DNA of 58,976 nucleotides from Candidatus Woesearchaeota archaeon (GCA_964406515.1 CAYORV010000003.1:1-58976); one strand, 5' to 3'. Shown: positions 1,476 through 33,255, numbered from the stretch's first letter. Notes: generated by a model from the sequence alone, not told the origin. Numbers and translations: made by a program.

Positions 1476-1527
1476 AAATACAAAACCACTCAGGAACTTT
1501 TAAATATTCTTATTTATTAAATAAAAT

Positions 1528-8579: not shown

Positions 8580-8594
8580 ATTTAATCAAACCTA

Positions 8595-8715
8595 TGCCCC
8601 CGACAGGATTCGAACCTGCGACCTATTGCTTTCCTCTTTTCCTTAAAAGGAGGAATGGGAAATTTCCCATCTCACTTAGAAGGCAATCGCTCTATCCAAG
8701 CTGAGCTACAGGGGC
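8595..8715 (-). tRNA. tRNA-Arg(UCU) with 46-nt intron at 37/38 (8631-8676)
   Basis: GCCCCTG/CGGGGGC acceptor; ATTGC-CTTCTA|intron|A-GCAAT; T loop TTCGAAT. Confidence 0.9.
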
Positions 8716-8802
8716 TTCTTGAACCTGTAGCGAATCATCCGTTCCAACGAAAAGGAGGTTGACTGTCAAGGAACCTTGGTTCCTTACATGAGCTACAGGG
8801 GC
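8702..8802. mobile_element. Short GGAACC/GGTTCC hairpin element between 14-bp direct repeats of the tRNA-Arg 5' end
   Basis: TGAGCTACAGGGGC at 8702-8715 and 8789-8802; AAGGAACCTTGGTTCCTT hairpin inside. Confidence 0.7.
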
Positions 8803-8848
8803 CTATAAATTCTAAGAAATAATCATATTTAAAATCTTTCTATTAAGA

Positions 8849-9100
8849 TTAATTTGAAGAAATATCTACAGAAAAACCAAATTCCTCTAATATAAATTTA
8901 GCTAAACCAACAGGGTCTTTTAACATTATCATCCCTTTTTTAAATGCGCTAAAATCATCTATTTTAAGATATCCTTCCAAATTTTTAGCTCTATCTTCAT
9001 TTCCTCGTATAATACAATAAACATGTTCTCCATTGATATCAAGATAAAAATTTTTATTTGAAAAAGATACTGTTGACATAGATAGGATATACTCTTTCAA
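8849..9100 (-). CDS. Hypothetical protein
   Basis: 83-aa ORF, TTG start, no motif. Confidence 0.4.
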   Translation of the reverse strand: MKEYILSMSTVSFSNKNFYLDINGEHVYCIIRGNEDRAKNLEGYLKIDDFSAFKKGMIMLKDPVGLAKFILEEFGFSVDISSN

Positions 9101-9114
9101 CTATTTATTTTTTT

Positions 9115-10008
9115 CTAAATCTCCAAAACATCCAAATCTTTCGCTACAGAAGAATTCTTGAAGATCTTCTTGGCGTCATTCAAAATCTTACTCGGTTCTT
9201 TCTCATATCTTTGGCTTATGTGAGTCAAGATTAATTTCTTAACCTTAGCTTTTTTCGCAATTTGACCAGCTTGTTTTGCTGTCAAATGATTATGTTTCTT
9301 TGCTTTTTCTTCAAGTTCTGAATTAAATGTAGATTCAGAAATAAACAAATCAGAATTCTTAACAAATGGAAAAATTCCTGGATTTACTGATGTATCCAAA
9401 ACAAAGGAAATTTTCTTCCCATCTTCTTGAAATGTCAAATTTTTTGCCAAATATTTTTTGCCTTTGTATGTTATATTTTTTCCTTCTTTTAATTTTTTCA
9501 AAAGAGGTCCTGAAGGAAGTTTAGATTTTTTCAACTTATCTCGATCTATCCTCAATTTTCCTTTCTTAACAAAAGCATATGCATTGCAAGGAATTCCGTG
9601 AGTCATTTTCTTGGCTTCGATATAAAAATCATCTGTCTCAAAAAATTTCCCGTCAACTTCTTCAATTTTAATTTTTCCCCTATCTTTAAAAACAAATGTT
9701 CTAAAAAGATTTCCCATAAATTGTTTAGTTCCACGAGGACCATAAATAAAAAGAGTTTTGTTATAACCGCTCAATGCCAATGTTTGAAGTAAACCTGGAA
9801 GTCCCAAAACATGATCTCCGTGCCAATGAGTAATCAAAATCCGAGTAACCTTGCAAGGATTAATCTTCGCTTTCCTCATTTGTCTTTGAGTTCCCTCCCC
9901 ACAATCTAAAAGAATATTCTCCCCGCCATAAGTAAGTAAAATAGACGTCGGATTTCTTTCAGCACTGGGTATTGAATCAGATGTTCCTAAAAAAGTTATT
10001 CTTACCAT
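9115..10008 (-). CDS. rnz: Ribonuclease Z
   Basis: FLGT, LLDCGEGTQRQ, THWHGDH metallo-beta-lactamase motif, exosite GP loop, LTHISQRY. Confidence 0.95.
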   Translation of the reverse strand: MVRITFLGTSDSIPSAERNPTSILLTYGGENILLDCGEGTQRQMRKAKINPCKVTRILITHWHGDHVLGLPGLLQTLALSGYNKTLFIYGPRGTKQFMGNLFRTFVFKDRGKIKIEEVDGKFFETDDFYIEAKKMTHGIPCNAYAFVKKGKLRIDRDKLKKSKLPSGPLLKKLKEGKNITYKGKKYLAKNLTFQEDGKKISFVLDTSVNPGIFPFVKNSDLFISESTFNSELEEKAKKHNHLTAKQAGQIAKKAKVKKLILTHISQRYEKEPSKILNDAKKIFKNSSVAKDLDVLEI

Positions 10009-10043
10009 AACTAAAAGAACAGAAAATCATTTATATAATTTAC

Positions 10044-10301
10044 TTACTCTTTTTTCAAAACAGTTGATGCCGGAGAAATAAAAATTATTGTGTCACCTCT
10101 CAAAAAACCAAGGCCAAGATTTCTCTTTACCTCGTTGTCCTGCATTTCTTTGATATTATCTAACACTAAGTTAATATGTATATCAAACGCCAAGAGGGTT
10201 CCTACAAATTGTTTATCTCCTTTCAAGTGCACTAAAACTTCTTTTCCCTTCGAGTTATTCAATAAATCCAAGGGCCTTTCAATTCCGTTAACCATATTCA
10301 A
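10044..10301 (-). CDS. Sm-like (LSm) protein
   Basis: RPLDLL...GTLLAFDIHINLVL...LRGDTIIFISP. Confidence 0.92.
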   Translation of the reverse strand: MNMVNGIERPLDLLNNSKGKEVLVHLKGDKQFVGTLLAFDIHINLVLDNIKEMQDNEVKRNLGLGFLRGDTIIFISPASTVLKKE

Positions 10302-10386
10302 TTCATCATAATCCTGTTTATAAAAGTTTCCCCCGCAAAATTACACAAACAAAAAGATATTTAAATCAATCTTATTGCTTTCTAAT

Positions 10387-10740
10387 ATGAAGCGAGGGAA
10401 AAAAATATCCGGAGGACGATATGTCCAAAATAGAAAAAAGAAATCCTATGAAATAGCTGGGCAAAGAAGAATTATTAAAATTAGTGAAGAGAAAAGAAAA
10501 GCGCAAAGAACAAAGGGCGGAAAAAAGAAAATTATTTTACTTGGAGCAAAATTTGTAAATATTCAGGGGAAAGACAAAAAAGCAGAAATAAAAAACGTTT
10601 TAGAAACTCCTTCAAATAGATTCCTCGCCAGACAAAATATATTAACAAAGGGAACAATCCTAGACACAGACCAAGGAAAAGTCAAAATAACAAACAGACC
10701 AACACAAGAAGGTGTTGTAAATGGAATTCTAGTTGAATAA
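10387..10740 (+). CDS. rps8e: 30S ribosomal protein S8e
   Basis: RTKGG, VLETPSNRFLARQNILTKGTIL, TNRPTQEGVVNG; ATG 10387 preferred over TTG 10375. Confidence 0.92.
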   Translation: MKRGKKISGGRYVQNRKKKSYEIAGQRRIIKISEEKRKAQRTKGGKKKIILLGAKFVNIQGKDKKAEIKNVLETPSNRFLARQNILTKGTILDTDQGKVKITNRPTQEGVVNGILVE

Positions 10741-10840
10741 TCTCTTTTTGATTTTTTACTTCTGTATCATAACAATAAAAAACAAAAGCTTTATATAAGC
10801 AAAAGCTTTATAAACCTTACGGAAACCCCCTACCACTAAA

Positions 10841-11758
10841 ATGAGTTTTGTTAAAAAATGCCCAGAATGCGGGAGTATCAATATTACTTCAGACGAATAT
10901 TTAGGAGAAGTTACTTGTAATGACTGTGGTCTTGTCATTGAAGAAAAAATGGCAGATACAGGAATTGATATGCAGGGAAAATTTGACAAAGATGATAAAA
11001 AAGGTCGAGGAGGAGCCCCGATAAGTATACAAAAATTCGACAAAGGATTGACAACAAATGTCGGAGAAATTTCAGACATCTACAAACTAGAACCAGGACA
11101 AACAAGAAAATTCTTAAGACTTAAAAAATGGCAAGAAAGAGTTTCCACTAGTATTGAAAGAAATTTAAGATTGGCCATGGCAGAACTCAGAGTAATAGCT
11201 TCTTACTTAACCCTCCCAAATGTTGTTCGTGATGAAGCAGCCAGAATATACAATTATGTATTACAAAGGGGATTGGTCAGAGGTAGAAGTATGGAATCTG
11301 TAATTGCCGCTTGTTTATACGCTGCATGCAGATCTTATGACATTCCAAGAACCCTCGACGAAATGGCAACAGCCTCAGACGTTGAAAGAAAAGAAATCGG
11401 AAGAACTTACAGATTCATAATCAGAAAATTAGGAATTAGAATTAAACAAAGTTCACCTAAAGATTATATTTCAAGATTTTCATCAGTTCTAAAATTATCT
11501 CCAAAAACACAAAATGATGCTTTGGATGTATTAAGACAAGCAGAAAAAGTCGAGCTTACATCTGGAAGAGGGCCTGCTGGAATTGCTGCCGCAGCACTTT
11601 ATGTTGCAGCACTAATAAACGATGAAAAGAAAACACAAAGAGAAGTAGCAGATATTGCAGGAATAACAGAAGTAACAATAAGAAACCGATACAAGGAACT
11701 AATAGAAAAATTAAAGCTCGGTGAAAAAATAAAAGAAAAAGAAGTTAGAAAAAAATAG
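10841..11758 (+). CDS. tfb: Transcription initiation factor IIB
   Basis: CPECGS...CNDCG Zn ribbon, ERNL, RGRS, TQREVA...TEVTIRNRYKEL. Confidence 0.97.
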   Translation: MSFVKKCPECGSINITSDEYLGEVTCNDCGLVIEEKMADTGIDMQGKFDKDDKKGRGGAPISIQKFDKGLTTNVGEISDIYKLEPGQTRKFLRLKKWQERVSTSIERNLRLAMAELRVIASYLTLPNVVRDEAARIYNYVLQRGLVRGRSMESVIAACLYAACRSYDIPRTLDEMATASDVERKEIGRTYRFIIRKLGIRIKQSSPKDYISRFSSVLKLSPKTQNDALDVLRQAEKVELTSGRGPAGIAAAALYVAALINDEKKTQREVADIAGITEVTIRNRYKELIEKLKLGEKIKEKEVRKK

Positions 11759-11798
11759 TTTTCTAAAGATTTTTATATATTAAATTTGTGATAATTCT

Positions 11799-11858
11799 AT
11801 CAGCCTTGAGCAGTATCTTAAAGGAAGGGTTGATAAGGGAAACCTTAGTTTCCTTTAT
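11799..11858. mobile_element. Short hairpin element of the 33092-33252 family, directly 5' of tRNA-Leu
   Basis: ATCAGCCTTGAG...TATCTTAAAGGAAG...GGAAACCTTAGTTTCC. Confidence 0.7.
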
Positions 11859-11942
11859 GCGGGGATGCCGGAGTGGTCAAACGGGACAGGTTTAGGACCT
11901 GTTAGCTTAGTGCTTACCAAGGTTCGAATCCTTGTCTCCGCA
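11859..11942 (+). tRNA. tRNA-Leu(UAG)
   Basis: GCGGGGA/TCTCCGC acceptor, ACAGG-TTTAGGA-CCTGT, long variable arm, TTCGAAT. Confidence 0.95.
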
Positions 11943-12011
11943 TATGGATTCTCACCTTACAGGTTTCCCAAGGGATGACTCGGGAAGAGCCGCGAATCCT
12001 TGTCTCCGCAT
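11925..12011 (+). repeat. 19-bp direct repeat of the tRNA-Leu 3' end around a 49-bp insert
   Basis: CGAATCCTTGTCTCCGCAT at 11925-11943 and 11993-12011. Confidence 0.9.
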
Positions 12012-15000
12012 TATATAATTTTCTTCTTCAACAATTCCTTAAGCCACTTCATATTATTTGCACCAAACACTTGACCAAGGCCTCTAAAATCCCTACATTC
12101 TTCCTTAGTCAAAATTCCATCAAAAAGAAGTTCATTAATAAACACCATATTTTCAGAATATTTTCCTCCACTTCTCCTACCTTCAATTTGAAGTAAAATA
12201 TTAGTTTCCTTAATAGCAAAATCTACTATCCACTTCTCTCGTTCTTCTATTTCATCACTAGTTCCTTCAGGAGCATACCTAAATGCTCTATAAACATACC
12301 ATTCATCCAACATAATTTCATAATTCTCTAATTTAACCTTGCTTCTTTCATAAGGGTCACCATAAGCATAAACACGAGTTCTATCAGTATTATAATGAGA
12401 AAAAATTGCAGTGTGTTGCGTTTTTTCACAATTCTGGCCAAACACCACAACATCTCCTTTCTCTAATTTACTTGCATCAACTTCAACAAAATCAGTGGTT
12501 CCATCAAACAAAACAATCAAATTATCAATTGCATCCAATGCACAAGCAGTATCTTCAAGTTCTAATCCCGGTGTGCTTATCCCTGCACCAATCAAAACTC
12601 TTGTAACAAATCTAGAACAAACATTGCTTTTTTCCTTTCTTCCTTTTTCATTAATCCTATATTCATTATATCCTTCATCTGCATAATTCTTAGCAATCTC
12701 CCAAATTCTTTTCCCTGTTGGACTTGCTGAATCTGAACTTGAACTTGAACCACTTTCAGAAGTTGGAAATTCCTCTTCAACATGATTCTCAATAAAGTCT
12801 TCTACTGAAGCCAAAGTATCTTCTCCAGTATCACGATATCCTGCTATAAAATAGGTTGGTACACCTTTTATTTCTCCAGGGTGTATAAATATTATTTCAC
12901 CGCCTTCTCTACCAGAACAGAAACCTTTACCATAATCATTACAATAATCATAATTAAGTTTATTTGGCCATGATCCACCAATTACGATTATTTTATCATA
13001 ACCTTGAACATCTTCCCATTCTCCTGACCGACTACCTGTTGGCTCGTCTGTTATCACAAGTGTAACATCATACCCTTTTTCTTCTAATGCTTCTTTAATT
13101 AGTTCTGCAGCTGGCAAATCATTATCATTTCCTCGAGAAGCAGAATAATGAACAACAACTGTTTCACCAAGAGAGATATATTCTTCTTCCTCCTTTTCTT
13201 CAACTTCTTCTTCCCCCGTTTCTAAACTAAAAAGAATTTGAGCCCCTTCATAAAAATCCTTTCCTTCTAAAGATTCTATAAGTTTAATAGGCTCACCATG
13301 AAAATTCCCAGAAGCAATAATTCTCGGAACAGTTATCCAATCCACTTTATCAGGACTCCATTCCCATTTATTATTTTGAAATCTAAAATAAAACAAAGTA
13401 GTGGGCAATTCTGTTTTCCTATATCTAAAAGTAAACTCTTTTTTAGAATTCATTTCAGCATTATCTGCATACAATTTTCCATTAAACTTGCCAAAACCAC
13501 CTTCTTCACTTTCTCTGACAACTGTATCAATTAAAATCTCTAACCCTTGCGCATAACTTTTTCCATCTAATTTCTGAATCAATTCTCCATTATCTTTTGT
13601 AGGTTCATCTTCATCATATCTTCCACCACTAACAACAATTGTAGAAACTTTCATCCAATTTTCTTCATCAGGAGACCAATACCATCCCGCGGAATATGCA
13701 TAATGCAAATTAGAAACCAATACATTTCCATCCTTATATTCAAAAATAGGAAAATCAAATTCTTCTATCTTATCTTCTTCTTCCCCTTCTTTATCTTCTT
13801 CTTCCTCTCCTTCCCCCGCAGTCTTCAATTTCTCCATTTCTTCTTTTATAGAACGTCTCGCAATATCTGCATAAGCATTTCCCCTCAATAAAAACATATA
13901 AGCCTTCTCTTTATTCAAGAAAACCTTATCAAAAATTTCTTCAATTAAAACCAATTGCTTAAAAGAATCTCCTTCATTAGAAATTTCTTCCACCTTAGAA
14001 TTAAATTCTGCTTCACTAATATAATTTCCTTCATTTCTCAACAAATCTAAATAATCTTCAGCCACCTCTTCTAAAACATTACCTTCAATTTCTACACCTT
14101 CAATAATATCTCTTATATTTTCTGTATCAAGCCAACATCCTATATTTTCAGAATCACAATAACCAACCTGCTTCCATCTTGAACTCTCTGTTCCAGCATA
14201 AGAATCAGAACCAATTCCCGGATTTCCCGTAGCACAAGTTCTTATAATTCCATAATTAGCATCATCAAAAATCATTCCAGAAATACATTCTGTTTCTGTT
14301 TTAATATCTGCATCTGTTACTTGACTAGCCACATACAAATCACTAACATAATCAACTACAAATGAAGTTGAAACCTCCTTGAAACCACATTCTTCTTGTC
14401 CATTAACATTAATACATAATTGCTGGTATCCAGAAGCTTCAGTCAAATCTCTTGTTTCTGTAGCATATTCACCAACTCCCACATAACCAGAAGCTATCAT
14501 TAATGTCGAGGAAGTATCTTGATAATAAGAACTTCCTGGAATCCCTTTCAAATAAACTTGATAATACGACCCTGAATTCTTTCCTGCAAATATATGATAA
14601 AACACTTTGTAATGAGATGTTGGAGGCACTGTCACCGACGAGAAAGGTATTTCATCAAATCTTCCATGGAATTGTGCAGGAGAATCTGGTTCTGACAATG
14701 TATCAAGCAAATCCGCACCCTTTGGATAAACTCCTGAAACAGATAACTTACAAAGTTCCCCTCCTACTTCTTCTGTAGACCTTGATTTAAATGCCTTAAA
14801 TGAATTTGCTCCATAATATTGTGTGAAATAATTAACAGAACCTTTAGCGTCAGCCCATGCATCTGCAACAGTCAAATATTCTCCACCCCCCCTACTACCT
14901 TGCCCAAATAATCTTCCAATCAAACTTGGAATTGCAAGGTCTACTAAAGGAAGTGCTTGTCTCCAGAAAAACTCACATATATAAATACTATGAATCTCAT

Positions 15001-18000
15001 CGCAAATTCCAATCATTTCTCCAGTATCCAAGGAATTCTGCAAACAATCTCTGTAAGAAGTTTTCACAGAAAGCCATCCATCAATTCCTGCTTTTACTCC
15101 AGTTAAACAAACAGGCATTGCAATTCCCTCTTGCATATTTGGTAAACATAATACTAAACTTCCAATAATCCCTGATTGAACAACATCTCTCACAGGATAA
15201 GCTCCTCCTAAATCACATCTACTTGAAGGACAAATTACAGGATCACAAACATTAAATAAAAGATTACAATCTTTTGGAGACATAAAATCCTGACATTCCA
15301 TTCCAGGAATATCTACTGCCGGTGCACCTACACTAACTGTTTCTCCTAAAATTTTAACATTTCCTGATAAACCAGAACCATAAGCTCTTGATGCTTGTTC
15401 AATTGCCCTAAATGCATCATTAACTAAATCTTCTGCATCATCCTCATCAAGCCCTTCAAACTGATCAAAAGGCCCTGTCCTTCGATTAACCATTCCACAA
15501 TCATCTACTCCAATACCTTCTTCCAACCCATTCTCTCCAACATTACACAACCAAAAACTACTGACAGCACCAGAATCATCAAATGCCCTAATATTTCCAC
15601 CAACAGGCAATGTCTGTTTTGTTGCAGCATACCAACCATGCTTTAAATCAAAAGGCACAATTGCAGGCCGACCCTTGTACGGCTCTGTCTCATAATATCT
15701 CAGTTCAGCATTCTTGTATTCATTTTCATAAGATGAAGAATCATATTTTTGAAAGTAAATATCTTTTAATCCAGATACATATTTCCCAGGATTTTCAACA
15801 AGATTCCCATCAGAATCATATATCATCAACTCATCAGTAGGAACCAACGTAAGACTGGCAGGACTAAGTCCAGAATATCTTTCCAACCTCTTTATTGGAA
15901 TATTCTCTCCAAAAGAATCATCTAAAACAATTATATAAATTTCTCCTTGATATTGCATCAATTGGACTGGAGTATCTGGTTCTAATTCCACCGAACTATC
16001 TAAGACAGAATATTTCATTATTTTCGTCTTTTCTTTTATATCTTCATAAGTTAATCCCTTATACGCAATTCTCTTTGTATCTTTAGTTTCATAAAGTCCT
16101 ATATCTTTTGCATTAATATTAAAATCTCCTGCTATATTACTTCTTTCTACATAATCCCCTGCATTTTCCCTAACATCAAAAAGTATGGAATAAAGCTCTC
16201 TCTCAGCTAAACTTTGTGCTTCAGAACTTGCACTATCGTCTTTCAAAACTTTCGCCCAAAGTTCAATCTCTCTTAATTGCTCTTGACTATAATACCTATT
16301 TTTCCAACCACTATAATTTAAAATAGTTAGCATATCGTCTTTGGTAATTGCTTCTTCATTTCCATCTGGATCTGCAAAACTATCTGGAAAACTATCATCC
16401 CAATAATTTATAACTTGAGTTGAATATTTTTTCATAAATTCATCAGTGTTAACCGTGCTTGTTCCAAACAAATCTGTCTCTGTAATTCCTTTTTCTAATT
16501 CTTTCATCTGCTTATTTTGTTCAACAATTAATTCAGAAAGTTTAGTTACATCATTGTCAATTGTGTCAGCATTATCCAACAAACATTTATCAATTGAAAC
16601 ACCAGTTTCACTCGAGATGTCTGTGCATTTCTCATACCATCCTCCGCTACCCCTCATAATATGTCCTCTCGCAATTCCTGTTCCACCTGCATTTGCCATA
16701 AAATTTTTGAAAACCAAACCAGCTCCTGTTACAACACATGCTTTCTGAAGTACTTCAACAGTTTTTCCCACACCTTCAGAAAAATTCTGCCATTTCCCAA
16801 TTTGACTATCTAGATTCTCAATTCTTTCTTTAATCTTTTCAGGAGGCAACTTAAATGCTCTTTTCTCAATATCAACCCTAAATCCAAAACTTGCCTCTGT
16901 TCCAGAGTCTTCAATACCTGGAATAACAGAAACTTTTGCTGTCTTCTTAAGATTTACATCAGACAAAGTAAATGTATATCCTCCATAACTTTTTGAAACA
17001 TCTTTCCCTAAAATCAAAGTCTTTTCTTTTCTTCCAGCATTAATTTCAATCTTTGCAGAATCTTGTTCAAGAGAAATTAATTGTATTGTATCTGTTTTAT
17101 CATTAATATAAATAAGTTTATTTTTCCTAGCCTCATAAGAATCTGTTCCTTCTGAATCCTGCACAAGTATTTCTGCACCATAATCCTCAAAACTTGGCTC
17201 ATAGATTCCATCAAAAACAATTTTCTTAGTCTCTCCATTAATAGTCACATAATTTGTAGCAATCTCTTGATTTGAAAGTAGATATTCATTATCACAATAC
17301 TCTTCGATGTTTTTCTCAGAGTTAGGATACAAAAACTTAAACTCATCGCACAATTCAAGAACAGTCCTCTTCTGTTCCCCATCCCAAGCAAGAACAATCT
17401 TTTTATACAAAGCTTCTTCGCCAAAAGTCCTATCATTTAAATCAACATGAGATTCTCCAGAAAAACTATCTATCACTGTTTCATAATCATCAACTGCATC
17501 CTGATATTCACTGATGCCTTCTATTACAATACTATCAATTGGTTCTGTAAATCCATTCAAAATAGCTTTCTCTCCTGATACATCTATGAATGAATGTCTA
17601 ACAATTTCTTCTTTCCTATAATTAATCATATTATAAAATTCATTATCTTTTACACTTTTGGCAACTATATCCAATACTCCTGCAATTCCTTTTACACCAT
17701 CAGCAGCAACACTAACAAGTCCTCCCTTAAAATCATTATATAATAATTCTCCAACAACAATATTATAATAATTTAAATCTCCTTCTGTTAATCTATCCAT
17801 ATGTTCTGACATTGAAACCAAAAAAACAAACAAACCATTCACATCTTTTGCATCATTCTTAGTTCCAATATAACCTACATAAACAGACCTTAAACCATCT
17901 GCTGTTTTGTAAATATGATCTCCCAAACCAACCTCTTTCTCAACTCCACCAATACTCAAATTTACTTTTGGGCTAATAGTAAAATCCATTCTTTCTACTC

Positions 18001-18934
18001 CCTCATCTTCATTACACTTAATCCTAATTTCTTGCACAAGTCCTTTTTTCTCTAACCTAATAACTTCGCACTTGTTATCCAAAAACTTCTCATTTTTTGC
18101 AACTTCATAAATATTAGCATTAACTTTTATCAAGGCTCTTGAATCAGAAGCCTCTAAACTATTTAGTTTTAATCTCAAACTTGCTAAACAATCAAATCCA
18201 GGAAGATATATTTCTCCAGAAGTTTCTCCCTTATCCAATGAAACACTTTGAAGCTTATCATCTCCTGAATAAATTGAGATTACTGCACTATCTTGTCCCA
18301 CATCATCAGCTTTCAAGTATCCCTTATTATTCCAAAAACCATACTGGTATTTCTTTTTTTCCCAGTCAGAATCTTCTAATTCCGGCAAGTAAAAATTTGC
18401 TCTGCCAATTCCAAATGCATTCTTAACATCATATCTAATTCTTGCAGTAAGATTTCCTGAAACAAAATCCGGCATTGCCGAAGCATTTGCTTGTTTTTTC
18501 AAAACTATAACAACATAACCAATATTATTTAGGATAGGATTATTCAAAGCCCCCTTAACACCCAATGCAGCTTGTGCAGGATGAAAAGCGATTCCTTCTA
18601 CTTCTGGAGGATACTCTCCTGAAAAAGAAATGCTCTCAATTGCTTCAACATCTACCAAGGGATTAATCTTTGTCGCTCCTAACCTACAAAAAACAGGAAC
18701 ATTTTGTTCTTCAAGTAAATCAGTTCTTACAACCGCAGGAGTACATCCAAAAGGAGCAATCTGAATTATAAAATCCTGTCCTTGTTCACATGTTGCGCCA
18801 CCAAACTCTTCAGTTCTATCACTCATATATTGCACATACGCAGGAGTAGAACGCATAGCCGATGATGCAAAAGACAAAGTCAAAACTAAAAATATGAAAA
18901 CCATTCCAATTTTTAAAATTCTATCTTGCTTCAT
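12011..18934 (-). CDS. Giant secreted protein (2307 aa): Cys-rich core, internal repeats, C-terminal NlpC/P60-like domain
   Basis: N-terminal signal peptide; NVCSRFVTRVLIGAG...LEKGDVVVFG...QHTAIF near the C-terminus. Confidence 0.75.
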   Translation of the reverse strand: MKQDRILKIGMVFIFLVLTLSFASSAMRSTPAYVQYMSDRTEEFGGATCEQGQDFIIQIAPFGCTPAVVRTDLLEEQNVPVFCRLGATKINPLVDVEAIESISFSGEYPPEVEGIAFHPAQAALGVKGALNNPILNNIGYVVIVLKKQANASAMPDFVSGNLTARIRYDVKNAFGIGRANFYLPELEDSDWEKKKYQYGFWNNKGYLKADDVGQDSAVISIYSGDDKLQSVSLDKGETSGEIYLPGFDCLASLRLKLNSLEASDSRALIKVNANIYEVAKNEKFLDNKCEVIRLEKKGLVQEIRIKCNEDEGVERMDFTISPKVNLSIGGVEKEVGLGDHIYKTADGLRSVYVGYIGTKNDAKDVNGLFVFLVSMSEHMDRLTEGDLNYYNIVVGELLYNDFKGGLVSVAADGVKGIAGVLDIVAKSVKDNEFYNMINYRKEEIVRHSFIDVSGEKAILNGFTEPIDSIVIEGISEYQDAVDDYETVIDSFSGESHVDLNDRTFGEEALYKKIVLAWDGEQKRTVLELCDEFKFLYPNSEKNIEEYCDNEYLLSNQEIATNYVTINGETKKIVFDGIYEPSFEDYGAEILVQDSEGTDSYEARKNKLIYINDKTDTIQLISLEQDSAKIEINAGRKEKTLILGKDVSKSYGGYTFTLSDVNLKKTAKVSVIPGIEDSGTEASFGFRVDIEKRAFKLPPEKIKERIENLDSQIGKWQNFSEGVGKTVEVLQKACVVTGAGLVFKNFMANAGGTGIARGHIMRGSGGWYEKCTDISSETGVSIDKCLLDNADTIDNDVTKLSELIVEQNKQMKELEKGITETDLFGTSTVNTDEFMKKYSTQVINYWDDSFPDSFADPDGNEEAITKDDMLTILNYSGWKNRYYSQEQLREIELWAKVLKDDSASSEAQSLAERELYSILFDVRENAGDYVERSNIAGDFNINAKDIGLYETKDTKRIAYKGLTYEDIKEKTKIMKYSVLDSSVELEPDTPVQLMQYQGEIYIIVLDDSFGENIPIKRLERYSGLSPASLTLVPTDELMIYDSDGNLVENPGKYVSGLKDIYFQKYDSSSYENEYKNAELRYYETEPYKGRPAIVPFDLKHGWYAATKQTLPVGGNIRAFDDSGAVSSFWLCNVGENGLEEGIGVDDCGMVNRRTGPFDQFEGLDEDDAEDLVNDAFRAIEQASRAYGSGLSGNVKILGETVSVGAPAVDIPGMECQDFMSPKDCNLLFNVCDPVICPSSRCDLGGAYPVRDVVQSGIIGSLVLCLPNMQEGIAMPVCLTGVKAGIDGWLSVKTSYRDCLQNSLDTGEMIGICDEIHSIYICEFFWRQALPLVDLAIPSLIGRLFGQGSRGGGEYLTVADAWADAKGSVNYFTQYYGANSFKAFKSRSTEEVGGELCKLSVSGVYPKGADLLDTLSEPDSPAQFHGRFDEIPFSSVTVPPTSHYKVFYHIFAGKNSGSYYQVYLKGIPGSSYYQDTSSTLMIASGYVGVGEYATETRDLTEASGYQQLCINVNGQEECGFKEVSTSFVVDYVSDLYVASQVTDADIKTETECISGMIFDDANYGIIRTCATGNPGIGSDSYAGTESSRWKQVGYCDSENIGCWLDTENIRDIIEGVEIEGNVLEEVAEDYLDLLRNEGNYISEAEFNSKVEEISNEGDSFKQLVLIEEIFDKVFLNKEKAYMFLLRGNAYADIARRSIKEEMEKLKTAGEGEEEEDKEGEEEDKIEEFDFPIFEYKDGNVLVSNLHYAYSAGWYWSPDEENWMKVSTIVVSGGRYDEDEPTKDNGELIQKLDGKSYAQGLEILIDTVVRESEEGGFGKFNGKLYADNAEMNSKKEFTFRYRKTELPTTLFYFRFQNNKWEWSPDKVDWITVPRIIASGNFHGEPIKLIESLEGKDFYEGAQILFSLETGEEEVEEKEEEEYISLGETVVVHYSASRGNDNDLPAAELIKEALEEKGYDVTLVITDEPTGSRSGEWEDVQGYDKIIVIGGSWPNKLNYDYCNDYGKGFCSGREGGEIIFIHPGEIKGVPTYFIAGYRDTGEDTLASVEDFIENHVEEEFPTSESGSSSSSDSASPTGKRIWEIAKNYADEGYNEYRINEKGRKEKSNVCSRFVTRVLIGAGISTPGLELEDTACALDAIDNLIVLFDGTTDFVEVDASKLEKGDVVVFGQNCEKTQHTAIFSHYNTDRTRVYAYGDPYERSKVKLENYEIMLDEWYVYRAFRYAPEGTSDEIEEREKWIVDFAIKETNILLQIEGRRSGGKYSENMVFINELLFDGILTKEECRDFRGLGQVFGANNMKWLKELLKKKII

Positions 18935-20766
18935 CTAAAAGTCACCTCCAAATCTTGGTTCTCAAATAAGAAATAATTATTTTGAAGTTCTTCGATTGTT
19001 TTCGGAACAGCTAAACTATCTGCTTCTATTTCAATAATATTAGAATTTTGCAACTCAGATTCTAAAATATAATACTCTTGCTTTCCCCCTCCTGCAAGAA
19101 CATTAGATATCACCTGCGAAGGAATTTCAATATCAACACATTGTTCTTCAGTCATACCAAAAAGCCCTCCGATACCAGACCGAGAAACTTCAATACATTC
19201 TTCATGAACTATTTTTGATAATTGTATTGATGAGTCCTTGAAAACATAAACTTGAATCTCATATTGTGCTTCTGTTAATTTTACACTATTCTGTTCAGGA
19301 TAAACAATAGTTTCTGTATTATCCTCTGAGATGAAATAAATTATTGCCTCATCTCCATAATTAACTCCATCTAATTTTAATTTAATTTCCCTTTCATAAA
19401 GTTTATCCAAAATAATATCTGCACTTCCGGCTTGCGTTGTAGAAAGAACCTTCTTAGCATCTCTGAATCCTTCTGCTTTTGCAAGAACATAACCATTAAC
19501 ACACTGAGGAAAATCTGAATTTAATGATCCTCCAGAAGTAGTCCCAATATTACACTTCTCTCCAAAACATTCATAGGATATTTGTGCTTCAATTGGATTT
19601 AAAGAACCATCATAAGTTTTAACTTCAATAGGTGTATTCTTGTATTTGCATAATTCAACTTCCACATTAGAGGAAGTTGCGCCTAAAGCTTCTCTAGGTT
19701 TATTTCCTTGGATAACAACTGCAAGAGGGAATTGAAAAGTTTCACTTCCACTTGAGACTTGGACTAAAACAGGATACTTCACATTATAAACAAAGTGATA
19801 AGGAACATAACAAAATCCTAAAATTCCCAATCCAGGTTGATTTCCTACAGGATTAGCTAAAAGCATTTCTCCCTCAGACGGAAGAACTTCAAAAGCACTT
19901 GACCAATCTTTAGAATTAATAAATCTAACATCTTCATTCACATTAACATCAACAACAAAATATTCATCATTTCTACCAAGAAAACTTGCTTCTGTTCTCA
20001 AAGCAAGAGTATTTGTTTCAATAGCATCTTCCAATGAATCAAAAATTTCATTAGCGTTCCAAGTTTGAGGAGAACAAGTAATTTCCACCCCGTCAACAGG
20101 AGCATAAAGTCTCAAAAAATCAATAGCATAATCTTCCAAGAACAAATCTCTTTGCTCCTTATCATAAACTTCTCTTGCTGAAGCATAAAGCGCCCCTAAT
20201 TTTGATTTAATAGATACCCTATGACTTTTAATTATAGAACTCTTATCTTCTTTTTGAATACTCATTTTTAAATTCAATTTTACTTCAACATTATTATTCA
20301 TGATATTAATTGAAGCATCCGGTTCTTCAAATTCTATTTCAAAACCTTCATCATAATAATCATCAAAATTACAATTCCTAATTCTTTCTTCTATAAACTC
20401 TTGAAGTTGCGTCTCCATTTCTGTTTTAGAAGGAACTTGTTCTTTTTCTATATTATTTCCTGAAACATAATACCAATAAGGAATGGGATTTCCTAAAAAA
20501 TTAAGTTGAGACGAAAAAGGCATCTGAGCAGAACCAGGTTCAAAGTCAGGTAATTCAATATATCCTCCTTGACTTTCCAAAACATCAATTCCAATTTCTG
20601 TATCTTCTTCCAAACAAGTCAAAAAAGTATTATAAACTGGTTCAATACTTGCAGGAAGTCCGCCAATTCTAATCTGATCTCTAAGCAAAAAGAAACCCGC
20701 AACTCCAGCAACCAAAACTATCGCAATAATAATAAAAATAGTCACTTGACCTTTTTTACTTCTCAT
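18931..20766 (-). CDS. Large protein with class III (pilin-type) signal peptide
   Basis: MRSKKG|QVTIFIIIAIVLV; ATGA overlap with the giant gene. Confidence 0.75.
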   Translation of the reverse strand: MRSKKGQVTIFIIIAIVLVAGVAGFFLLRDQIRIGGLPASIEPVYNTFLTCLEEDTEIGIDVLESQGGYIELPDFEPGSAQMPFSSQLNFLGNPIPYWYYVSGNNIEKEQVPSKTEMETQLQEFIEERIRNCNFDDYYDEGFEIEFEEPDASINIMNNNVEVKLNLKMSIQKEDKSSIIKSHRVSIKSKLGALYASAREVYDKEQRDLFLEDYAIDFLRLYAPVDGVEITCSPQTWNANEIFDSLEDAIETNTLALRTEASFLGRNDEYFVVDVNVNEDVRFINSKDWSSAFEVLPSEGEMLLANPVGNQPGLGILGFCYVPYHFVYNVKYPVLVQVSSGSETFQFPLAVVIQGNKPREALGATSSNVEVELCKYKNTPIEVKTYDGSLNPIEAQISYECFGEKCNIGTTSGGSLNSDFPQCVNGYVLAKAEGFRDAKKVLSTTQAGSADIILDKLYEREIKLKLDGVNYGDEAIIYFISEDNTETIVYPEQNSVKLTEAQYEIQVYVFKDSSIQLSKIVHEECIEVSRSGIGGLFGMTEEQCVDIEIPSQVISNVLAGGGKQEYYILESELQNSNIIEIEADSLAVPKTIEELQNNYFLFENQDLEVTFR

Positions 20767-20897
20767 TCTTTTTCTACCTCCAAACCAAGTTTTTTTCTTA
20801 TTAAATTTAAAATTTCTGTATTAATATCTTTGTTAATAATTTCTTTAAATTTAGTCCAAAGTTTCTCATCCTCTATAAGAAGCAAATATTTTTTCAT
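20763..20897 (-). CDS. Small ribbon-helix-helix-like protein (44 aa)
   Basis: Manual translation MKKYLLLIEDEKLWTKFKEIINKDINTEILNLIRKKLGLEVEKE; ATGA-coupled to next gene; below ORF-track cutoff. Confidence 0.6.
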   Translation of the reverse strand: MKKYLLLIEDEKLWTKFKEIINKDINTEILNLIRKKLGLEVEKE

Positions 20898-20944
20898 ATA
20901 AGTTCAATACCATAAGAAAATTCCAATATTTAAATGTTTCTTAA

Positions 20945-20971
20945 TTATTAACTTACTTAGTAAGTTAATAA
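20945..20971. promoter_or_regulatory. Perfect inverted repeat with 13-bp arms upstream of the RHH/giant-protein operon (candidate operator)
   Basis: TTATTAACTTACT-T-AGTAAGTTAATAA. Confidence 0.55.
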
Positions 20972-21022
20972 GTTAGTAGAAGTTTTCTAAAATTAAATTA
21001 TTATAAAGATTTCCATACAAAA

Positions 21023-21226
21023 TCAGAATTCTCTTTTTTCTCTTTTTCCTTTCTTTATCAAATGAGTCAGACCTGAAAAAATAATTAAAACTCCTCCAAC
21101 AAAAAAGATCCATTTATTGATTTCAAGCACAAATTTTGGTAGAGTTACAAAAGAAAAAGCAAAATTAATGAAATACAATCCCAATGCCACATAAATCAAA
21201 AACCCGATTGTTCCCCACTTTTTCAT
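21023..21226 (-). CDS. Small two-TM membrane protein
   Basis: Two hydrophobic segments, basic tail. Confidence 0.65.
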   Translation of the reverse strand: MKKWGTIGFLIYVALGLYFINFAFSFVTLPKFVLEINKWIFFVGGVLIIFSGLTHLIKKGKREKREF

Positions 21227-21262
21227 AAACCCAATTAGGATATAAACTATTTAAATATTTCT

Positions 21263-21323
21263 TCAGGCCATTCAACTTCCTGTTGGGATGCTGGAGGTGT
21301 GAGGAACCCGCAGGAGGTTCTCA
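21263..21323. mobile_element. Diverged GC-rich hairpin element, probably of the GAACC/GGTTC family
   Basis: TCAGGC...GGAGGTGT..GAGGAACCCGCAGGAGGTTCTC. Confidence 0.45.
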
Positions 21324-21362
21324 ATTAATTAACTTTAAAAACCCAACTCCTCTTTTTCCATT

Positions 21363-21674
21363 ATGAAAATTCCCAAAGTTACAAACAGATATTGTCCGTA
21401 TTGTAAGAAAAGAACAGAACAAAAGATTAAAATAGTTGGTACAGGTTTTCAAAGAGGAACCTTAACAAGAGGTTCAAAATCACGAGCGAAATTAAGGGGC
21501 CTTGGAAGAGGAATTGGAAACAAGGGAAAATGGGGCTCAAAACCAGCACAATCTAAATTCAAAAGAAAAAGTAAAACAACCAAAAAAACAAACATAATGT
21601 ATACTTGTCAAGAATGTAAAAAATCAAAGTATCAGAAAAAAGGTCAAAGGGCCGGGAAGGTTTTACAAGAATGA
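21363..21674 (+). CDS. rpl44e: 50S ribosomal protein L44e (eL42)
   Basis: MKIPK...YCPYCKK...KTTKK...CQECKK. Confidence 0.92.
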   Translation: MKIPKVTNRYCPYCKKRTEQKIKIVGTGFQRGTLTRGSKSRAKLRGLGRGIGNKGKWGSKPAQSKFKRKSKTTKKTNIMYTCQECKKSKYQKKGQRAGKVLQE

Positions 21675-21738
21675 TAATCAGACGTGACCCAATTTCAGAG
21701 GAAAGTTTAATAAAGAAAACTAGGAGGTTATCTTTATA

Positions 21739-22275
21739 ATGGCACAAGCAAAAAGAAAAAAAAGATTTTTTGATGTAAAGATTCCAACAATTGGAAAAAC
21801 AACACAATTACAAGCATATGAAATTAAAGACCTAGAAGGAAGATTTGTAAAATATGATTTAACAAGATTTCTAAAAGGAAAAAGCATGTTACTAACTTCA
21901 GAAGTAAAAATAGAGAATGATGAAGCATCAACTTCTCCAAGAAAAATAATGTTAATGTCTTACTTTCTCAAAAGAATGGTAAGGAAAGGAACAAACTATG
22001 TTGAAGATTCATTTTCTGCTCCTTGTGAAAATGCTCAGATAAGAATAAAACCATTTCTTGTAACAAGAAGAAAAGTTTCAAGGGCCGTAAGAAAAGCACT
22101 AAGGGAAAAGGCAAGAGAAGAACTTACAAATTATATTAAAGATAAACCTTTCGAACATTTGTTTGATGAGATAATAAAAAATCAATTGCAACGACAATTG
22201 AGCATAAAGCTCAAAAAAATATACCCTCTTTCTCTTTGTGAAATACGAGTTCTACAAGTAGAAAATAAAAAGTAA
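21739..22275 (+). CDS. rps3ae: 30S ribosomal protein S3Ae (eS1)
   Basis: LKRMVRKGTNYVED...KLKKIYPLSLCEIR. Confidence 0.88.
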   Translation: MAQAKRKKRFFDVKIPTIGKTTQLQAYEIKDLEGRFVKYDLTRFLKGKSMLLTSEVKIENDEASTSPRKIMLMSYFLKRMVRKGTNYVEDSFSAPCENAQIRIKPFLVTRRKVSRAVRKALREKAREELTNYIKDKPFEHLFDEIIKNQLQRQLSIKLKKIYPLSLCEIRVLQVENKK

Positions 22276-22346
22276 GCCTGCGGAGAGATTCGAACTCCCG
22301 ACCCTTTGCTTACAAGGCAAACGCTCTACCACTGAGCTACACAGGC
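22275..22346 (-). tRNA. tRNA-Thr(UGU)
   Basis: GCCTGTG/CGCAGGC acceptor, TTTGC-CTTGTAA-GCAAA, TTCGAAT. Confidence 0.95.
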
Positions 22347-22452
22347 ATTTATGCATTGTGTAACGATTAATCGCTTTAAAGCGATTCCTTCCCAAAAGGG
22401 AGGGGTTACTGTAAGGGGAACCGTAGGTGCCCCTCATGAGCTACACAGGCAT
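22333..22452. mobile_element. Short GGAACC hairpin element between 16-bp direct repeats of the tRNA-Thr 5' end
   Basis: TGAGCTACACAGGCAT at 22333-22348 and 22437-22452; AGGGGAACCGTAGGTGCCCCT hairpin. Confidence 0.7.
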
Positions 22453-22514
22453 AATATCAATTAACCAAACTATATTAAAAAGATTTCTATTGGACAAAAA
22501 CCTTAAATACTATC

Positions 22515-22566
22515 TATTGCTTTACAATATTGTATTTAATATTATAATCAGTATTGATTTACAATA
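22515..22566. promoter_or_regulatory. Two TATTG-N5-CAATA palindromes before the HTH gene (candidate operators)
   Basis: TATTGCTTTACAATA 22515-22529 and TATTGATTTACAATA 22552-22566. Confidence 0.45.
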
Positions 22567-22568
22567 GA

Positions 22569-33042: not shown

Positions 33043-33091
33043 CTAAAAAGAAATAATCAAAGACTTTTAATGATTATTATAATGAAGTGCA

Positions 33092-33252
33092 ATCAGGCTT
33101 GACCTATCTTAAAGGAAGTTTCGTAAAAGAAACCCTTGGTTCTTTATCAGGCTTGACCCTAACTTAAAGGAGATGTCATAAGAAGAACCTTATTCTTTAT
33201 CAGGCTTGACCCTATCTTAAAGGAGATGTCATAAGAAGAACCTTGGTTCTTT
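33092..33252. repeat. Three tandem copies (54/53/54 bp) of the GAACC/GGTTC hairpin element
   Basis: Unit ATCAGGCTTGACCCTATCTTAAAGGAGATGTCATAAGAAGAACCTTGGTTCTTT starting at 33092, 33146, 33199. Confidence 0.92.
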
Positions 33253-33255
33253 TTA

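Follow-up and report, generated by a model that had tools for sequence, protein, structure and literature searches.

Two tRNA genes preceded by an insert and a copy of their own 5' end

The window analysed here is a stretch of 58,976 nucleotides of DNA from a Candidatus Woesearchaeota archaeon (GCA_964406515.1 CAYORV010000003.1:1-58976), the genome of which (G000) has 640 kb and is 80% complete. On the minus strand of the window tRNA-Arg(TCT) and tRNA-Thr(TGT) are each preceded by an insert and, upstream of it, by an exact copy of their own nucleotides 1-14, which is called the orphan copy in the following. This bears out an earlier note on this DNA, which had proposed an insert after A14 of two tRNA genes together with a duplication of their 5' ends. 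The name E was given to the ~45-nt hairpin module which is the related part of the inserts. The Arg locus contains the following features:

8595..8715, minus strand: tRNA-Arg(TCT), intact, with a 46-nt anticodon-loop intron (ARAGORN with introns; Rfam tRNA 56.2 bits; sequence)
~8631-8676, minus strand: intron of tRNA-Arg with an element-like layout, a hairpin followed by CCUCC and then UUUUAAGG (sequence)
8716..8788, minus strand: Arg insert, 73 nt (sequence; the covariance model matches 8734-8790 with an E-value of 2e-18)
8724..8731, minus strand: Arg 'anti' segment GCUACAGG, complementary to tRNA nt 4-11 (complementarity and folding)
8754-8788, minus strand: Arg element core, with hairpin H1 at 8768-8785 and then GACAGUCAACCUCC (sequence)
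8789..8802, minus strand: orphan exact copy of tRNA-Arg nt 1-14, GCCCCTGTAGCTCA (sequence; flank-repeat scan)
8825..8834, minus strand: TATA-like box UUUUAAAUAU, 22 nt upstream of the Arg orphan copy (by eye)

The features of the Thr locus are:

22275..22346, minus strand: tRNA-Thr(TGT), intact (tRNA search including Rfam)
22347..22388, minus strand: copy of the native tRNA-Thr promoter (..CUUUAAAGCGAUU..) (alignment with the promoters of G001, G003 and G004)
22357-22364, minus strand: Thr anti segment GUUACACA, created by a 4-nt insertion in the promoter copy (promoter alignment)
22389..22436, minus strand: Thr element core, variant B (UGAGGGGCACC..GGUUCCCCUUACAGUAACCCCUCCC, then another, small hairpin) (sequence; covariance model)
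22437..22450, minus strand: orphan exact copy of tRNA-Thr nt 1-14 (sequence; flank-repeat scan)
22451..22488, minus strand: putative promoter-like stretch (AGAAAUCUUUUUAAUAUA..) upstream of the Thr orphan copy (sequence)

Positions 8702-8802 and 22333-22452, previously taken for the tRNAs themselves, extend from nucleotide 14 of each tRNA to its orphan copy. The size of 73 nt given for the Arg insert was correct, whereas the Thr insert has 90 nt (22347-22436) and not 88. The inserts are indeed related, though over their first ~45 nt only (hairpin, ACAGU, CCUCC), and the insert junction A14|UG is identical at both loci. In the Arg insert the element core is followed by a second small hairpin and then by the tail. 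In the Thr insert only the first ~48 nt are element, the last 42 nt being homologous to the native tRNA-Thr promoter of the congeners. The Thr direct repeat amounts to 16 nt when the two upstream bases AT (22451-22452) are included. The two promoter-like stretches at this locus are about half identical, yet the orphan 16-mer is perfect, which looks odd for a single old duplication and would count against reading the insert as a mobile element. The region around the TATA-like box at the Arg locus is a predicted promoter.

The genome contains a third example, tRNA-Phe (C2:15168-15241), which is preceded by an insert of 80 nt and a copy of 14-16 nt, and the layout recurs in seven genomes besides this one. 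In all 11 tRNA 5' cases, from 8 genomes, the junction lies between A14 and G15; five of these (5/5) were found without presupposing the junction and the six further sites came from a search for the junction pattern. It was considered whether the duplication arose from misassembly of repeats. Logan contigs do end inside the repeated Arg hairpin (8784/8817), and one joins 22437 to 8751. The Thr site, however, is crossed without a single difference by two independent Logan contigs of other runs (X3 record 24, covering 22102-23000, and X4 record 32, covering 22267-23000), the Arg site is covered by X1 records 1 (8000-8784) and 2 (8817-11080) with a break only within the repeated hairpin, and the same layout is found at 11 sites in 8 genomes from different assemblies. 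The chance of an artefact is negligible.

A multi-copy family with filled and empty sites

E consists of a defined 5' end (N-GUAAGG), a covarying hairpin of 8-10 bp, an ACAGU/CCUCC block and a variable 3' tail, with a total length of 45-60 nt, sometimes longer. Compensatory changes occur in 6 of the 10 hairpin pairs. A covariance model built from 19 copies yielded 26 matches in G000. Of the 151 genomes available for the order 91 had matches, as had 72 of the 105 belonging to the same family, and the maximum was 33 per genome. E is endemic to this order of Pacearchaeota-like archaea, in whose tiny genomes it is scattered. No Rfam 15 family overlapped E copies, either at the gathering threshold in the window or at an E-value of at most 1 for L001-L004. 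The inserts are thus members of a multi-copy, non-coding family, in agreement with the non-autonomous element family suggested before.

Besides being multi-copy and widespread, E fills sites at Arg, Thr and Phe which are empty in congeners, as seen when filled and empty sites were compared within the genus. The orthologous Arg site is empty in all four congeners (G001-G004), the Thr site in the three viewed and the Phe site in the one viewed. In G003 a promoter homologous to the TATA-box region of the Arg locus (shared GATTATTTCTTA, by eye) directly adjoins tRNA-Arg with no insert. The same holds outside tRNA genes: an E copy after the 3' end of RNase P RNA is absent from the same spot in G004, and a 44-residue insert derived from E in topoisomerase IA is missing in 5/5 relatives.

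Target DNA is usually directly duplicated around E insertions. Repeats of at least 10 nt abutting the 5' end of E were found by the flank-repeat scan in 13 of 72 copies. After setting aside those explained by tandem arrays nine non-tandem duplications were left, mostly of 12-23 nt, as compared to three in a shifted control, and the repeats are therefore not due to chance. Beyond tRNA, a duplication of 14 nt in L043 corresponds to the first 14 nt of an ORF; further duplications comprise 18-23 nt in L032, 17 nt in L023, and 12-14 nt of the tRNA-Gln 3' end in L031. The length of the duplication is not fixed, ranging from 0-3 nt behind RNase P RNA over ~22-24 nt in the topoisomerase gene to ~52 nt in G160. 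Such a range is given by no single known transposase and speaks against a mobile element. At the E ends defined by flank duplications (L043, L032, L031 and Arg) terminal inverted repeats are absent by eye, which likewise counts against a mobile element.

The orphan 14-mers might also be att remnants of larger integrase-borne elements in tRNA genes which had decayed to 50-90 nt, comparable to a tRNA-Thr fragment of Caldiarchaeum beside a recombinase-bearing element. Partial tRNA copies near intact tRNAs are a classical integration footprint (PMC3293823). Mirror-image 3' tRNA copies, which begin in the T-loop and run to the 3' end, are present on C15 and C4 of this genome as well as in G004, and tyrosine integrases are encoded in three of five genomes searched. 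Against this origin, the repeated 14-mers differ among the tRNAs, each matching its own host tRNA exactly, and must therefore have been copied from the target and not carried along by one element. In addition, at all sites the repeats enclose the same core of ~45 nt, identical duplications are found at non-tRNA sites, and G000 was without an integrase. Decayed integrative elements are thereby a highly improbable source of the 14-mers.

Further locations of E

Targeting of the conserved TAGCTCA sequence of the D-arm, as put forward in the earlier note, agrees with the junction of the 11 tRNA 5' cases but not with the whole distribution, as E is also located in anticodon-loop introns, in RNase P RNA, at ORF ends, at tRNA 3' ends and in a topoisomerase ORF. 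In the window itself two more locations were found:

11796..11857, minus strand: E family member, reversed, touching nt 1 of tRNA-Leu(TAG) (11858-11943, plus strand) (covariance model, sequence)
33089..33257, minus strand: three head-to-tail E units starting from the stop codon of a phosphoglycerate mutase ORF (33256-34500) (covariance model)

Among 54 copies in relatives, 15 form the beginning of canonical tRNA introns (Tyr, Asp, Leu, Ser, Met/CAT, Arg, Glu), and these anticodon-loop copies do interrupt the mature RNA. Other copies lie just 3' of RNase P RNA or within it, where G000 and G113 keep E at the same position. Head-to-tail arrays are found 3' of ORFs, and reversed copies abut tRNA +1 or ORF start codons. 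The in-frame insert of 44 residues in the topoisomerase IA ORF consists of two reversed E units.

Folding of the leaders

The predicted fold of all three leaders of G000 is a closed domain with several hairpins and then a single-stranded linker of 8-10 nt before the tRNA, with nucleotides 4-11 of the orphan copy paired to the anti segment (z = -3.7, -5.7 and -1.95). This pairing also counts in favour of the mobile-element reading. When the Arg leader was folded alone, anti segment and orphan copy formed the closing stem (MFE -30.1 kcal/mol, z = -3.68). Complementarity of the inserts to their own tRNA has a mean of 7.0 nt as compared to 5.05 nt for other tRNAs. Of the 11 cases 5-6 have a strong anti segment, and in Phe, G315 and G094a it is weak. 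Tails of the Glu type are matched to Glu tRNAs alone, with 8-10 nt versus 3-4 nt for other tRNAs, counting Watson-Crick pairs only. Simple insertion would not lead one to expect an anti segment specific for the tRNA, which is a point against the element.

E and its closing stem could instead be a selected structured RNA module, acting as a protein-binding or processing signal or as a small RNA freed from leaders, introns and 3' UTRs, with orphan 14-mer and anti segment kept as the stem which defines or releases it, and with insertional spread being secondary. The covarying hairpin, the closed fold of the three leaders, the correspondence of the anti segment to the local tRNA and the shared position in RNase P RNA are consistent with this proposal. 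Furthermore, no more than 1-3 nt distinguish 60-nt E copies located in three host genes from two genera, while the flanking proteins are just 62-88% identical; this near-identity across genera is counted in favour of a mobile element, but could equally reflect selection for function and to that extent weighs against it. On the other hand, E occurs in both orientations with respect to transcription and one copy is translated in reverse within the topoisomerase ORF. Its sites are empty in congeners, so that E is dispensable at each locus, and none of the copies searched matched Rfam at an E-value of at most 1. At Thr, moreover, E lies upstream of the promoter copy and may be outside the tRNA transcript. 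Selection for an RNA module as the primary cause is considered rather unlikely.

Another alternative is a non-canonical intron in the D-loop. The orphan nucleotides 1-14 would then be the real 5' exon, both copies would be cleaved behind A14 by a splicing endonuclease, the 4-bp helix of a bulge-helix-bulge motif would come from pairing between their self-complementary AGCU stretches (nt 9-12), and a ligase would join the exons. By eye the geometry fits, with a minimal AGCU:AGCU helix (AGUU:AGUU in Glu) followed by two 3-nt bulges, C13 A14|U and C13 A14|G15. The 5' junction A|UGUAAGG is also that of the canonical introns starting with E, and intervening sequences in the D-loop are present in relatives (L014 and L162). 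Yet a contiguous intact tRNA gene follows downstream at Arg, Thr and Phe, and splicing is therefore not needed. By eye no consistent set of outer helices can be drawn for the motif, AGC is a competing pairing target of the anti segment, the sole EndA found in G000 is a single frame of 173 residues with the size of an alpha4-type enzyme, and the Thr promoter copy would be located inside the intron. Splicing of these leaders has a very low probability.

Known mobile sequences and the search for an enzyme

The window itself encodes no mobilising enzyme, as had been noted before. The candidates named at that time fared less well: in searches of the 80% complete G000 neither reverse transcriptase nor Y1/HUH transposase nor tyrosine integrase was found, nor was Cas1. 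A TnpB-like ORF on C34 was the only one found in G000. That no transposase-like partner is evident counts against a mobile element. Among the relatives no candidate enzyme family tracks the copy number of E. Cas1 occurs in just 9 of the 151 genomes of the order, none of them high-copy (0-1 E copies among those listed), and reverse transcriptase is lacking in G000, G003 and many high-copy genomes. An autonomous relative with E ends was not noticed amid the searches for Cas1, RVT_1, Y1_Tnp, TnpB-like and Phage_integrase proteins.

Like E, MITEs and RAYT-mobilised REP-type repeats are small, non-coding, multi-copy and mostly intergenic sequences with covarying hairpins, which depend on functions encoded elsewhere and differ in presence between close relatives. 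In contrast to them E has neither terminal inverted repeats nor a target duplication of fixed length, lies within RNA genes and tRNA introns and occurs in head-to-tail arrays; PF01797 (Y1/RAYT) had no match in G000, G003 and G120, though it is present in G112 and G113. Casposons are driven by Cas1, create target duplications of ~14-15 bp and prefer the ends of tRNA genes. E resembles them in duplication size and preference for tRNA genes, but comes without Cas1 in G000 and without inverted terminal repeats, measures ~50 nt and not kilobases, targets the 5' D-loop and has a variable duplication length. For eukaryotic retrotransposons targeting Pol III genes and for SINE-like target-primed insertion, tRNA genes are a safe haven and target duplications vary in length. 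E shares with these one defined and one variable end and differs from them in the missing A-rich tail, in its archaeal host and in the lack of reverse transcriptase in G000 and G003.

For the transposed tRNA introns of Thermoproteales one sequence family across different tRNA species has been described (Fujishima et al. 2010, as cited in a 2026 Asgard preprint). A related family common to introns of different tRNAs is what they share with E, whereas E has locations beyond introns as well, together with target duplications and with filled and empty orthologous sites, which points to arrival at the DNA level. Sugahara et al. 2012 (PMC3293823) report a 5' tRNA fragment, a mobile sequence and, downstream, an intact tRNA, and link the arrangement to intron gain. 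The element described there has 1.8 kb and encodes a recombinase, in contrast to the non-coding inserts of 48-110 nt found here, the repeats of which are copied from each target.

Insertion model and possible link to intron gain

Each insert is probably a copy of a mobile element, E, which is small, non-coding and non-autonomous and the insertion of which duplicates target DNA and thereby lets the intact tRNA survive. The hairpin end of E DNA would be joined to a break at A14/G15 in the tRNA gene, and repair of the staggered or resected target would copy the stretch from about tRNA +1 to nucleotide 14, sometimes more. A complete tRNA gene would thus be regenerated downstream while the orphan 14-mer stays upstream, and within tRNA genes the survivors would be only those insertions which regenerate a complete tRNA. 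At Arg and Phe the old promoter would now drive orphan copy, E and tRNA, with RNase P trimming the long leader; at Thr a copy of the native promoter is situated between E and the tRNA. The anti segment in the tail may pair with the orphan 14-mer and so keep it from competing with the real 5' strand in tRNA folding. The inversion of the Thr and Phe tRNA units compared with congeners (for tRNA-Thr relative to the flanking S3Ae gene, by comparison with G001, G003 and G004) is not accounted for by insertion alone and counts against the element.

As to the mobilisation of E, rough estimates tentatively place a trans-acting cut-and-fill or copy-in transposition activity first, followed by enzyme-free template switching or break repair as a weaker candidate and by reverse transcription of the reverse strand as a doubtful one, the remaining share going to something else.

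More speculatively, E as a mobile hairpin at the DNA level might be the vehicle by which the stable-RNA genes of these archaea gain intervening sequences. Its insertion would yield a spliceable intron in the anticodon loop and an expansion in RNase P RNA, would be survived in the D- or T-loop only with a duplicated target end, and the tail would then evolve complementarity to the adjoining exon-like sequence. If this were true, tail complementarity would follow the same logic of exon-intron pairing as the bulge-helix-bulge site, the tRNA 5' cases would represent introns at an intermediate stage of their birth, and the arrival route of archaeal tRNA introns would become directly testable.

tRNA genes with duplicated 5' ends

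The window belongs to an archaeal MAG of 640 kb in 35 contigs with 32% GC, encodes TFB, RadA and SRP54, and its relatives found through RadA are titled Pacearchaeota, Woesearchaeota or Nanoarchaeota. Two contigs of about 3 kb each (C31 and C32) have 51-55% GC versus about 32% elsewhere and may be rRNA genes or foreign DNA. The tRNA-Arg and tRNA-Thr genes of the window were both placed on the minus strand by ARAGORN, run with and without introns, and by Rfam, and each is preceded by an insert and by an orphan copy of its own 5' end:

8595-8715, minus strand: tRNA-Arg(TCT), complete, beginning with the same 14 nt as the orphan copy, with a 46-nt anticodon-loop intron
8716-8788, minus strand: Arg insert, 73 nt
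8789-8802, minus strand: Arg orphan copy, GCCCCTGTAGCTCA
8825-8834, minus strand: TATA-like box of the Arg site, with a 22-nt spacer to the orphan copy
22275-22346, minus strand: tRNA-Thr(TGT)
22347-22436, minus strand: Thr insert, 90 nt
22437-22450, minus strand: Thr orphan copy, GCCTGTGTAGCTCA, with a promoter-like stretch upstream
C2:15168-15241: third case, tRNA-Phe; upstream of it an insert of 80 nt and a duplicate of nt 1-14

The duplicated tRNA 5' end with a related insert, which the earlier note had described for tRNA-Arg and tRNA-Thr, was confirmed, and tRNA-Phe on contig C2 extends it. The Arg and Thr inserts align well only across their first 45 nt or so, which hold a hairpin of 8-10 bp, then (G/U)ACAGU(C/A)AAC and then CCUCC. 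The 42 tRNA-proximal nucleotides of the Thr insert (22347-22388) align with the native promoter of three genomes of the same genus (G001, G003 and G004; common TTTAAAGCGATT), and the element proper therefore takes up only about 48 of the 90 nt, so that a uniform insert of 73/88 bp, as originally proposed, was not upheld.

An assembly artefact as the source of this layout was checked in read data by comparing Logan contigs from four DNA runs with window positions 8000-23000. Independent contigs, record 24 of run X3 (22102-23000) and record 32 of run X4 (22267-23000), span the Thr site without differences, while at the Arg site the contigs end within the repeated hairpin (at 8784 and 8817), as expected of a repeat. 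As the Thr site is spanned in this way and the order of orphan copy, insert and tRNA recurs in seven other assemblies, an artefact is ruled out for practical purposes. All four runs also contain a contig in which 8712 is joined to 8814 across 14 different letters; in length this matches an empty site, yet the contig comes from a different, more abundant organism, a relative, and gives only a weak hint of an empty-site allele.

The 46-nt intron of tRNA-Arg(TCT) (8631-8676, minus strand) itself has an element-like layout of UGAG, hairpin, CCUCC and UUUUAAGG; in the same genus the intron is absent from this gene in G001, G002 and G004 and measures about 17 nt in G003. A degenerate element unit (21650-21720, minus strand) lies just upstream of the gene for ribosomal protein S3Ae and shares the orientation of the Thr site, which is about 600 nt away.

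A family of hairpin elements

BLAST and nhmmer searches within the genome yielded 26 copies of the element at an E value below 0.1, distributed over 17 loci, 11 of which are inside, or immediately next to, a tRNA or RNase P RNA gene. From an alignment of 19 copies RNAalifold obtained a hairpin of ten pairs with compensatory changes in six of them. A covariance model built on this alignment gave 26 matches in the genome; among 151 genomes sampled across the order 91 carried matches, as did 72 of the 105 that belong to the same family, and the copy number of a single genome reached 32-33. Rfam contains no family that covers the element, and IMG/VR viral contigs gave no match to two exact or degenerate patterns of it.

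Besides the three tRNA 5' sites, the contexts in this genome include a tRNA-Asp intron on contig C27 and the RNase P RNA gene:

C2:13982-14347: RNase P RNA (100.4 bits), with one element inside after CR-I and another touching its 3' end

Head-to-tail arrays of units of about 56 nt start from the stop codon of an ORF on contigs C10 and C23 and in the window (33089-33257). Reversed copies touch the first nucleotide of tRNA-Leu(TAG) (window 11796-11857), tRNA-Arg(CCT) and tRNA-Gly(GCC), another touches the ATG of a nuclease-like ORF on C16, and two lie inside a long ORF on C17. In relatives 54 copies were located by nhmmer in 47 fetched loci. Fifteen of these form the 5' part of canonical anticodon-loop introns, 0-4 nt off the splice site, in tRNAs for Tyr, Asp, Leu, Ser, Arg, Glu and others and in a CAT tRNA; three are within RNase P RNA, in two different places, five abut a tRNA 5' end and about eight an ORF start codon, all of these in reversed orientation, and two repeat the Arg/Thr layout (tRNA-Glu in each of two genomes, G113 and G012).

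Downstream of the RNase P RNA and its touching element (C2:13982-14650; L001:983-1650) two tandem units of about 100 nt are found, each resembling the RNase P 3' end (GAAGGTGGC..CTATTCC..ACTTA) and split by a piece of about 60 nt with 11-bp inverted ends; in G004 a single unit of this kind is present and the element is missing from this 3' end.

In the reversed units that touch tRNA position +1 there is a purine run and, about 22 nt from the unit end, a TTTGATAAAG-like box, and a promoter role for these variants is possible. At the Arg site the element as a promoter was ruled out, because no plus-strand gene follows.

Evidence for movement at the DNA level

A comparison of filled and empty sites, suggested with the original observation, favours insertion. 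Both insert and orphan copy of tRNA-Arg(TCT) are absent in all four same-genus genomes (G001, G002, G003 and G004), and in G003 a promoter region orthologous to the one that precedes the orphan copy here (common GATTATTTCTTA) directly abuts tRNA-Arg. The tRNA-Thr site is empty in all three genomes viewed (G001, G003 and G004), the tRNA-Phe site in the one viewed (G004), and at the RNase P 3' end of G004 only TTA is repeated and no element is present.

The long ORF on C17 (6934-9402, minus strand; L190) encodes a topoisomerase IA with Toprim, Topoisom_bac and zinc ribbon domains, in which residues 498-541 or so, an insertion of 44 residues, are two reversed element units read in frame (C17:7769-7911). 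This insertion is absent in all five relatives searched, which align with residues 1-497 and 542-822 contiguously in DNA. One of the two units has an imperfect flank duplication of about 22-24 nt; the other is joined at a pre-existing CCTTAC microhomology common with the element end.

The flanks of 72 copies were scanned for repeats of at least 10 nt abutting the element 5' end, with a window shifted by 40 nt as control. Such repeats were found at 13 copies, four of them tandem-array effects, which leaves nine as compared to three in the shifted control. Their lengths are 14 nt (Arg and locus L043), 16 nt (Thr and Phe), 17 nt (L023 and L028), 12-14 nt (L031) and 18-23 nt (L032); the repeat of L043 consists of the opening 14 nt of an ORF and that of L031 of the last 12-14 nt of tRNA-Gln. 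With a multi-copy family, empty orthologous sites and flank duplications at hand, the non-autonomous mobile element of the earlier note is the best supported of the readings considered, and is judged somewhat more probable than all others together.

Junction preference

All five tRNA 5' cases found without a presupposed junction (three in this genome and the two of tRNA-Glu) fall after A14 or G15. A junction-pattern search of 401 genomes, with the reversed pattern as control, gave 31 matches in 26 genomes, a raw count not clearly above the control, and of the 30 loci fetched only those 10 with the element were counted. Six sites were added in this way (two in G094 and one each in G315, G160, G358 and G178), the one in G160 with a duplication of about 52 nt. 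As the resulting 11 sites in eight genomes fall at A14/G15, either a real preference for this position or a strong survivorship bias has to be assumed. The proposed targeting of the TAGCTCA D-arm sequence is borne out as far as the recurrent junction is concerned; its specificity is contradicted by copies in introns, RNase P RNA, ORF ends and the topoisomerase gene, and the element is clearly not restricted to the tRNA 5' junction.

A mirror image of the 5' cases occurs at C15:2-225, where tRNA-Tyr and a copy of about 22 nt, running from its T-loop to its 3' end, enclose a reversed long variant. Partial tRNA 3'-end copies of about 22 nt beside the reversed long variant are also present beyond tRNA-Glu (C4:24680-24830) and, in G004, beyond tRNA-Phe (L181). 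Extra sequence in the D-loop was seen in tRNAs of two relatives (L014 of G003 and L162 of G094); L162 contains the tRNA 5' end in three successive copies of 14 nt, 22 nt and the full gene.

Promoters and leader structure

At the Arg site the orphan copy is preceded by the orthologous promoter, inspection by eye of the 38 nt between element core and tRNA revealed no clear promoter, and the precursor of tRNA-Arg probably carries an 87-nt leader. At the Thr site the sequence ahead of the orphan copy is promoter-like yet much more diverged, the 16-nt orphan copy is perfect, and tRNA-Thr may use the promoter copy within the insert. The Thr unit (22275-22490) is inverted relative to its flanking genes as compared to G001, G003 and G004, and so is the Phe unit (C2:15074-15241) as compared to G004 and G002; the tRNA-Arg unit is colinear with its counterparts in the genus.

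In ten of the 11 tRNA 5' inserts a segment about 10-15 nt before the tRNA is complementary to approximately nucleotides 4-11 of the tRNA (Arg, GCUACAGG; Glu, (A)ACUAUCGG; Thr, GUUACACA, the latter owing in part to 4 nt inserted in the promoter copy). The longest Watson-Crick run averages 7.0 nt against the own tRNA versus 5.05 nt against other tRNAs, and with G-U pairs allowed six of the 11 inserts beat 95% of shuffles, those of Phe, G315 and G094a being weak. When the three leaders of this genome were folded alone (z-scores -3.68, -5.66 and -1.95), the orphan copy paired with this anti segment and closed a domain of element hairpins, followed by a single-stranded linker of 8-10 nt ahead of the tRNA. 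The preferred reading of these folds is that the anti segment would mask the orphan 14-mer, which would then not compete for the partners in the acceptor and D-stem. Alternatively, the segment might stem from a templated (quasi-palindrome) mutation or might serve in targeting.

Candidate enzymes and rejected identities

The enzyme which the earlier note had placed outside the window was sought in the whole genome and in the order. The genome has no match to Cas1, RVT_1, Y1_Tnp or Phage_integrase; as it is 80% complete, such a gene may still lie in the missing part. RVT_1 occurs in 60 of 151 genomes of the order. Cas1, considered for the 14-nt duplication and rejected, is present in nine of the 151 genomes, and many high-copy genomes are without both. 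Reverse transcriptase was discarded as it is absent from this genome and G003 and, by the match lists, also from many high-copy genomes (G112, G120, G151 and G097). Two further frames are on record:

C34:~400-1500, minus strand: TnpB-like (Cas12f1-like_TNB) frame of 376 residues, on a 2.6-kb contig
~1500-2019, plus strand: only splicing-endonuclease match in the genome, a frame of 173 residues, alpha4-type size

The TnpB-like frame was rejected as mobiliser, since no copy of the element lies on its contig. As to the nature of the element, several readings were weighed by eye and dropped: a C/D-box sRNA (poor boxes, and the hairpin would fall in the guide region), a K-turn (lower stem Watson-Crick in variant B), hammerhead and other self-cleaving ribozymes (missing conserved cores and no Rfam match), ORB boxes of a replication origin (wrong polarity and too many copies), CRISPR (no spacers) and a ToxI-like antitoxin array (unrelated genes downstream of the arrays).

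Relation to known systems

Full-text literature searches retrieved no description of this family. The nearest concepts are casposons, the intron families of Thermoproteales, an element of Caldiarchaeum and introns entering at breaks. Casposons make duplications of about 14-15 bp at tRNA genes. In Thermoproteales, as cited in an Asgard preprint, intron families common to several tRNAs were read as transposition, and in Caldiarchaeum, according to PMC3293823, a recombinase-bearing element of 1.8 kb left a tRNA-Thr 5' fragment. A general proposal holds that introns are gained at breaks, where direct repeats are left behind. The available sections of a prokaryotic MITE survey report a high MITE density in some DPANN genomes and contain nothing like the present element. 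By their defining tests it does not qualify as a MITE, a RAYT-REP, a casposon derivative or an integrase footprint; it behaves most like a non-autonomous insertion element.

One family is thus met in four settings: it forms the 5' portion of canonical introns of at least seven different tRNAs, lies within RNase P RNA, occurs as fresh insertions that have target duplications and empty orthologous sites, and is read in frame within an essential protein gene. In very small DPANN genomes this ties intron-like sequences to a mobile DNA element. The arrival of tRNA introns in archaea is an open question on which the element bears, and its place at the head of many tRNA introns and within RNase P RNA makes it a promising handle on the origin of archaeal intervening sequences. 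It also illustrates how a gene-dense genome tolerates an insertion in an essential RNA gene by duplicating the gene end. Inserts of this kind will mislead the annotation of tRNAs and RNase P RNA in these lineages; in this genome ARAGORN took the tRNA-Asp for Ser and, with the intron option off, missed tRNA-Arg with its intron.
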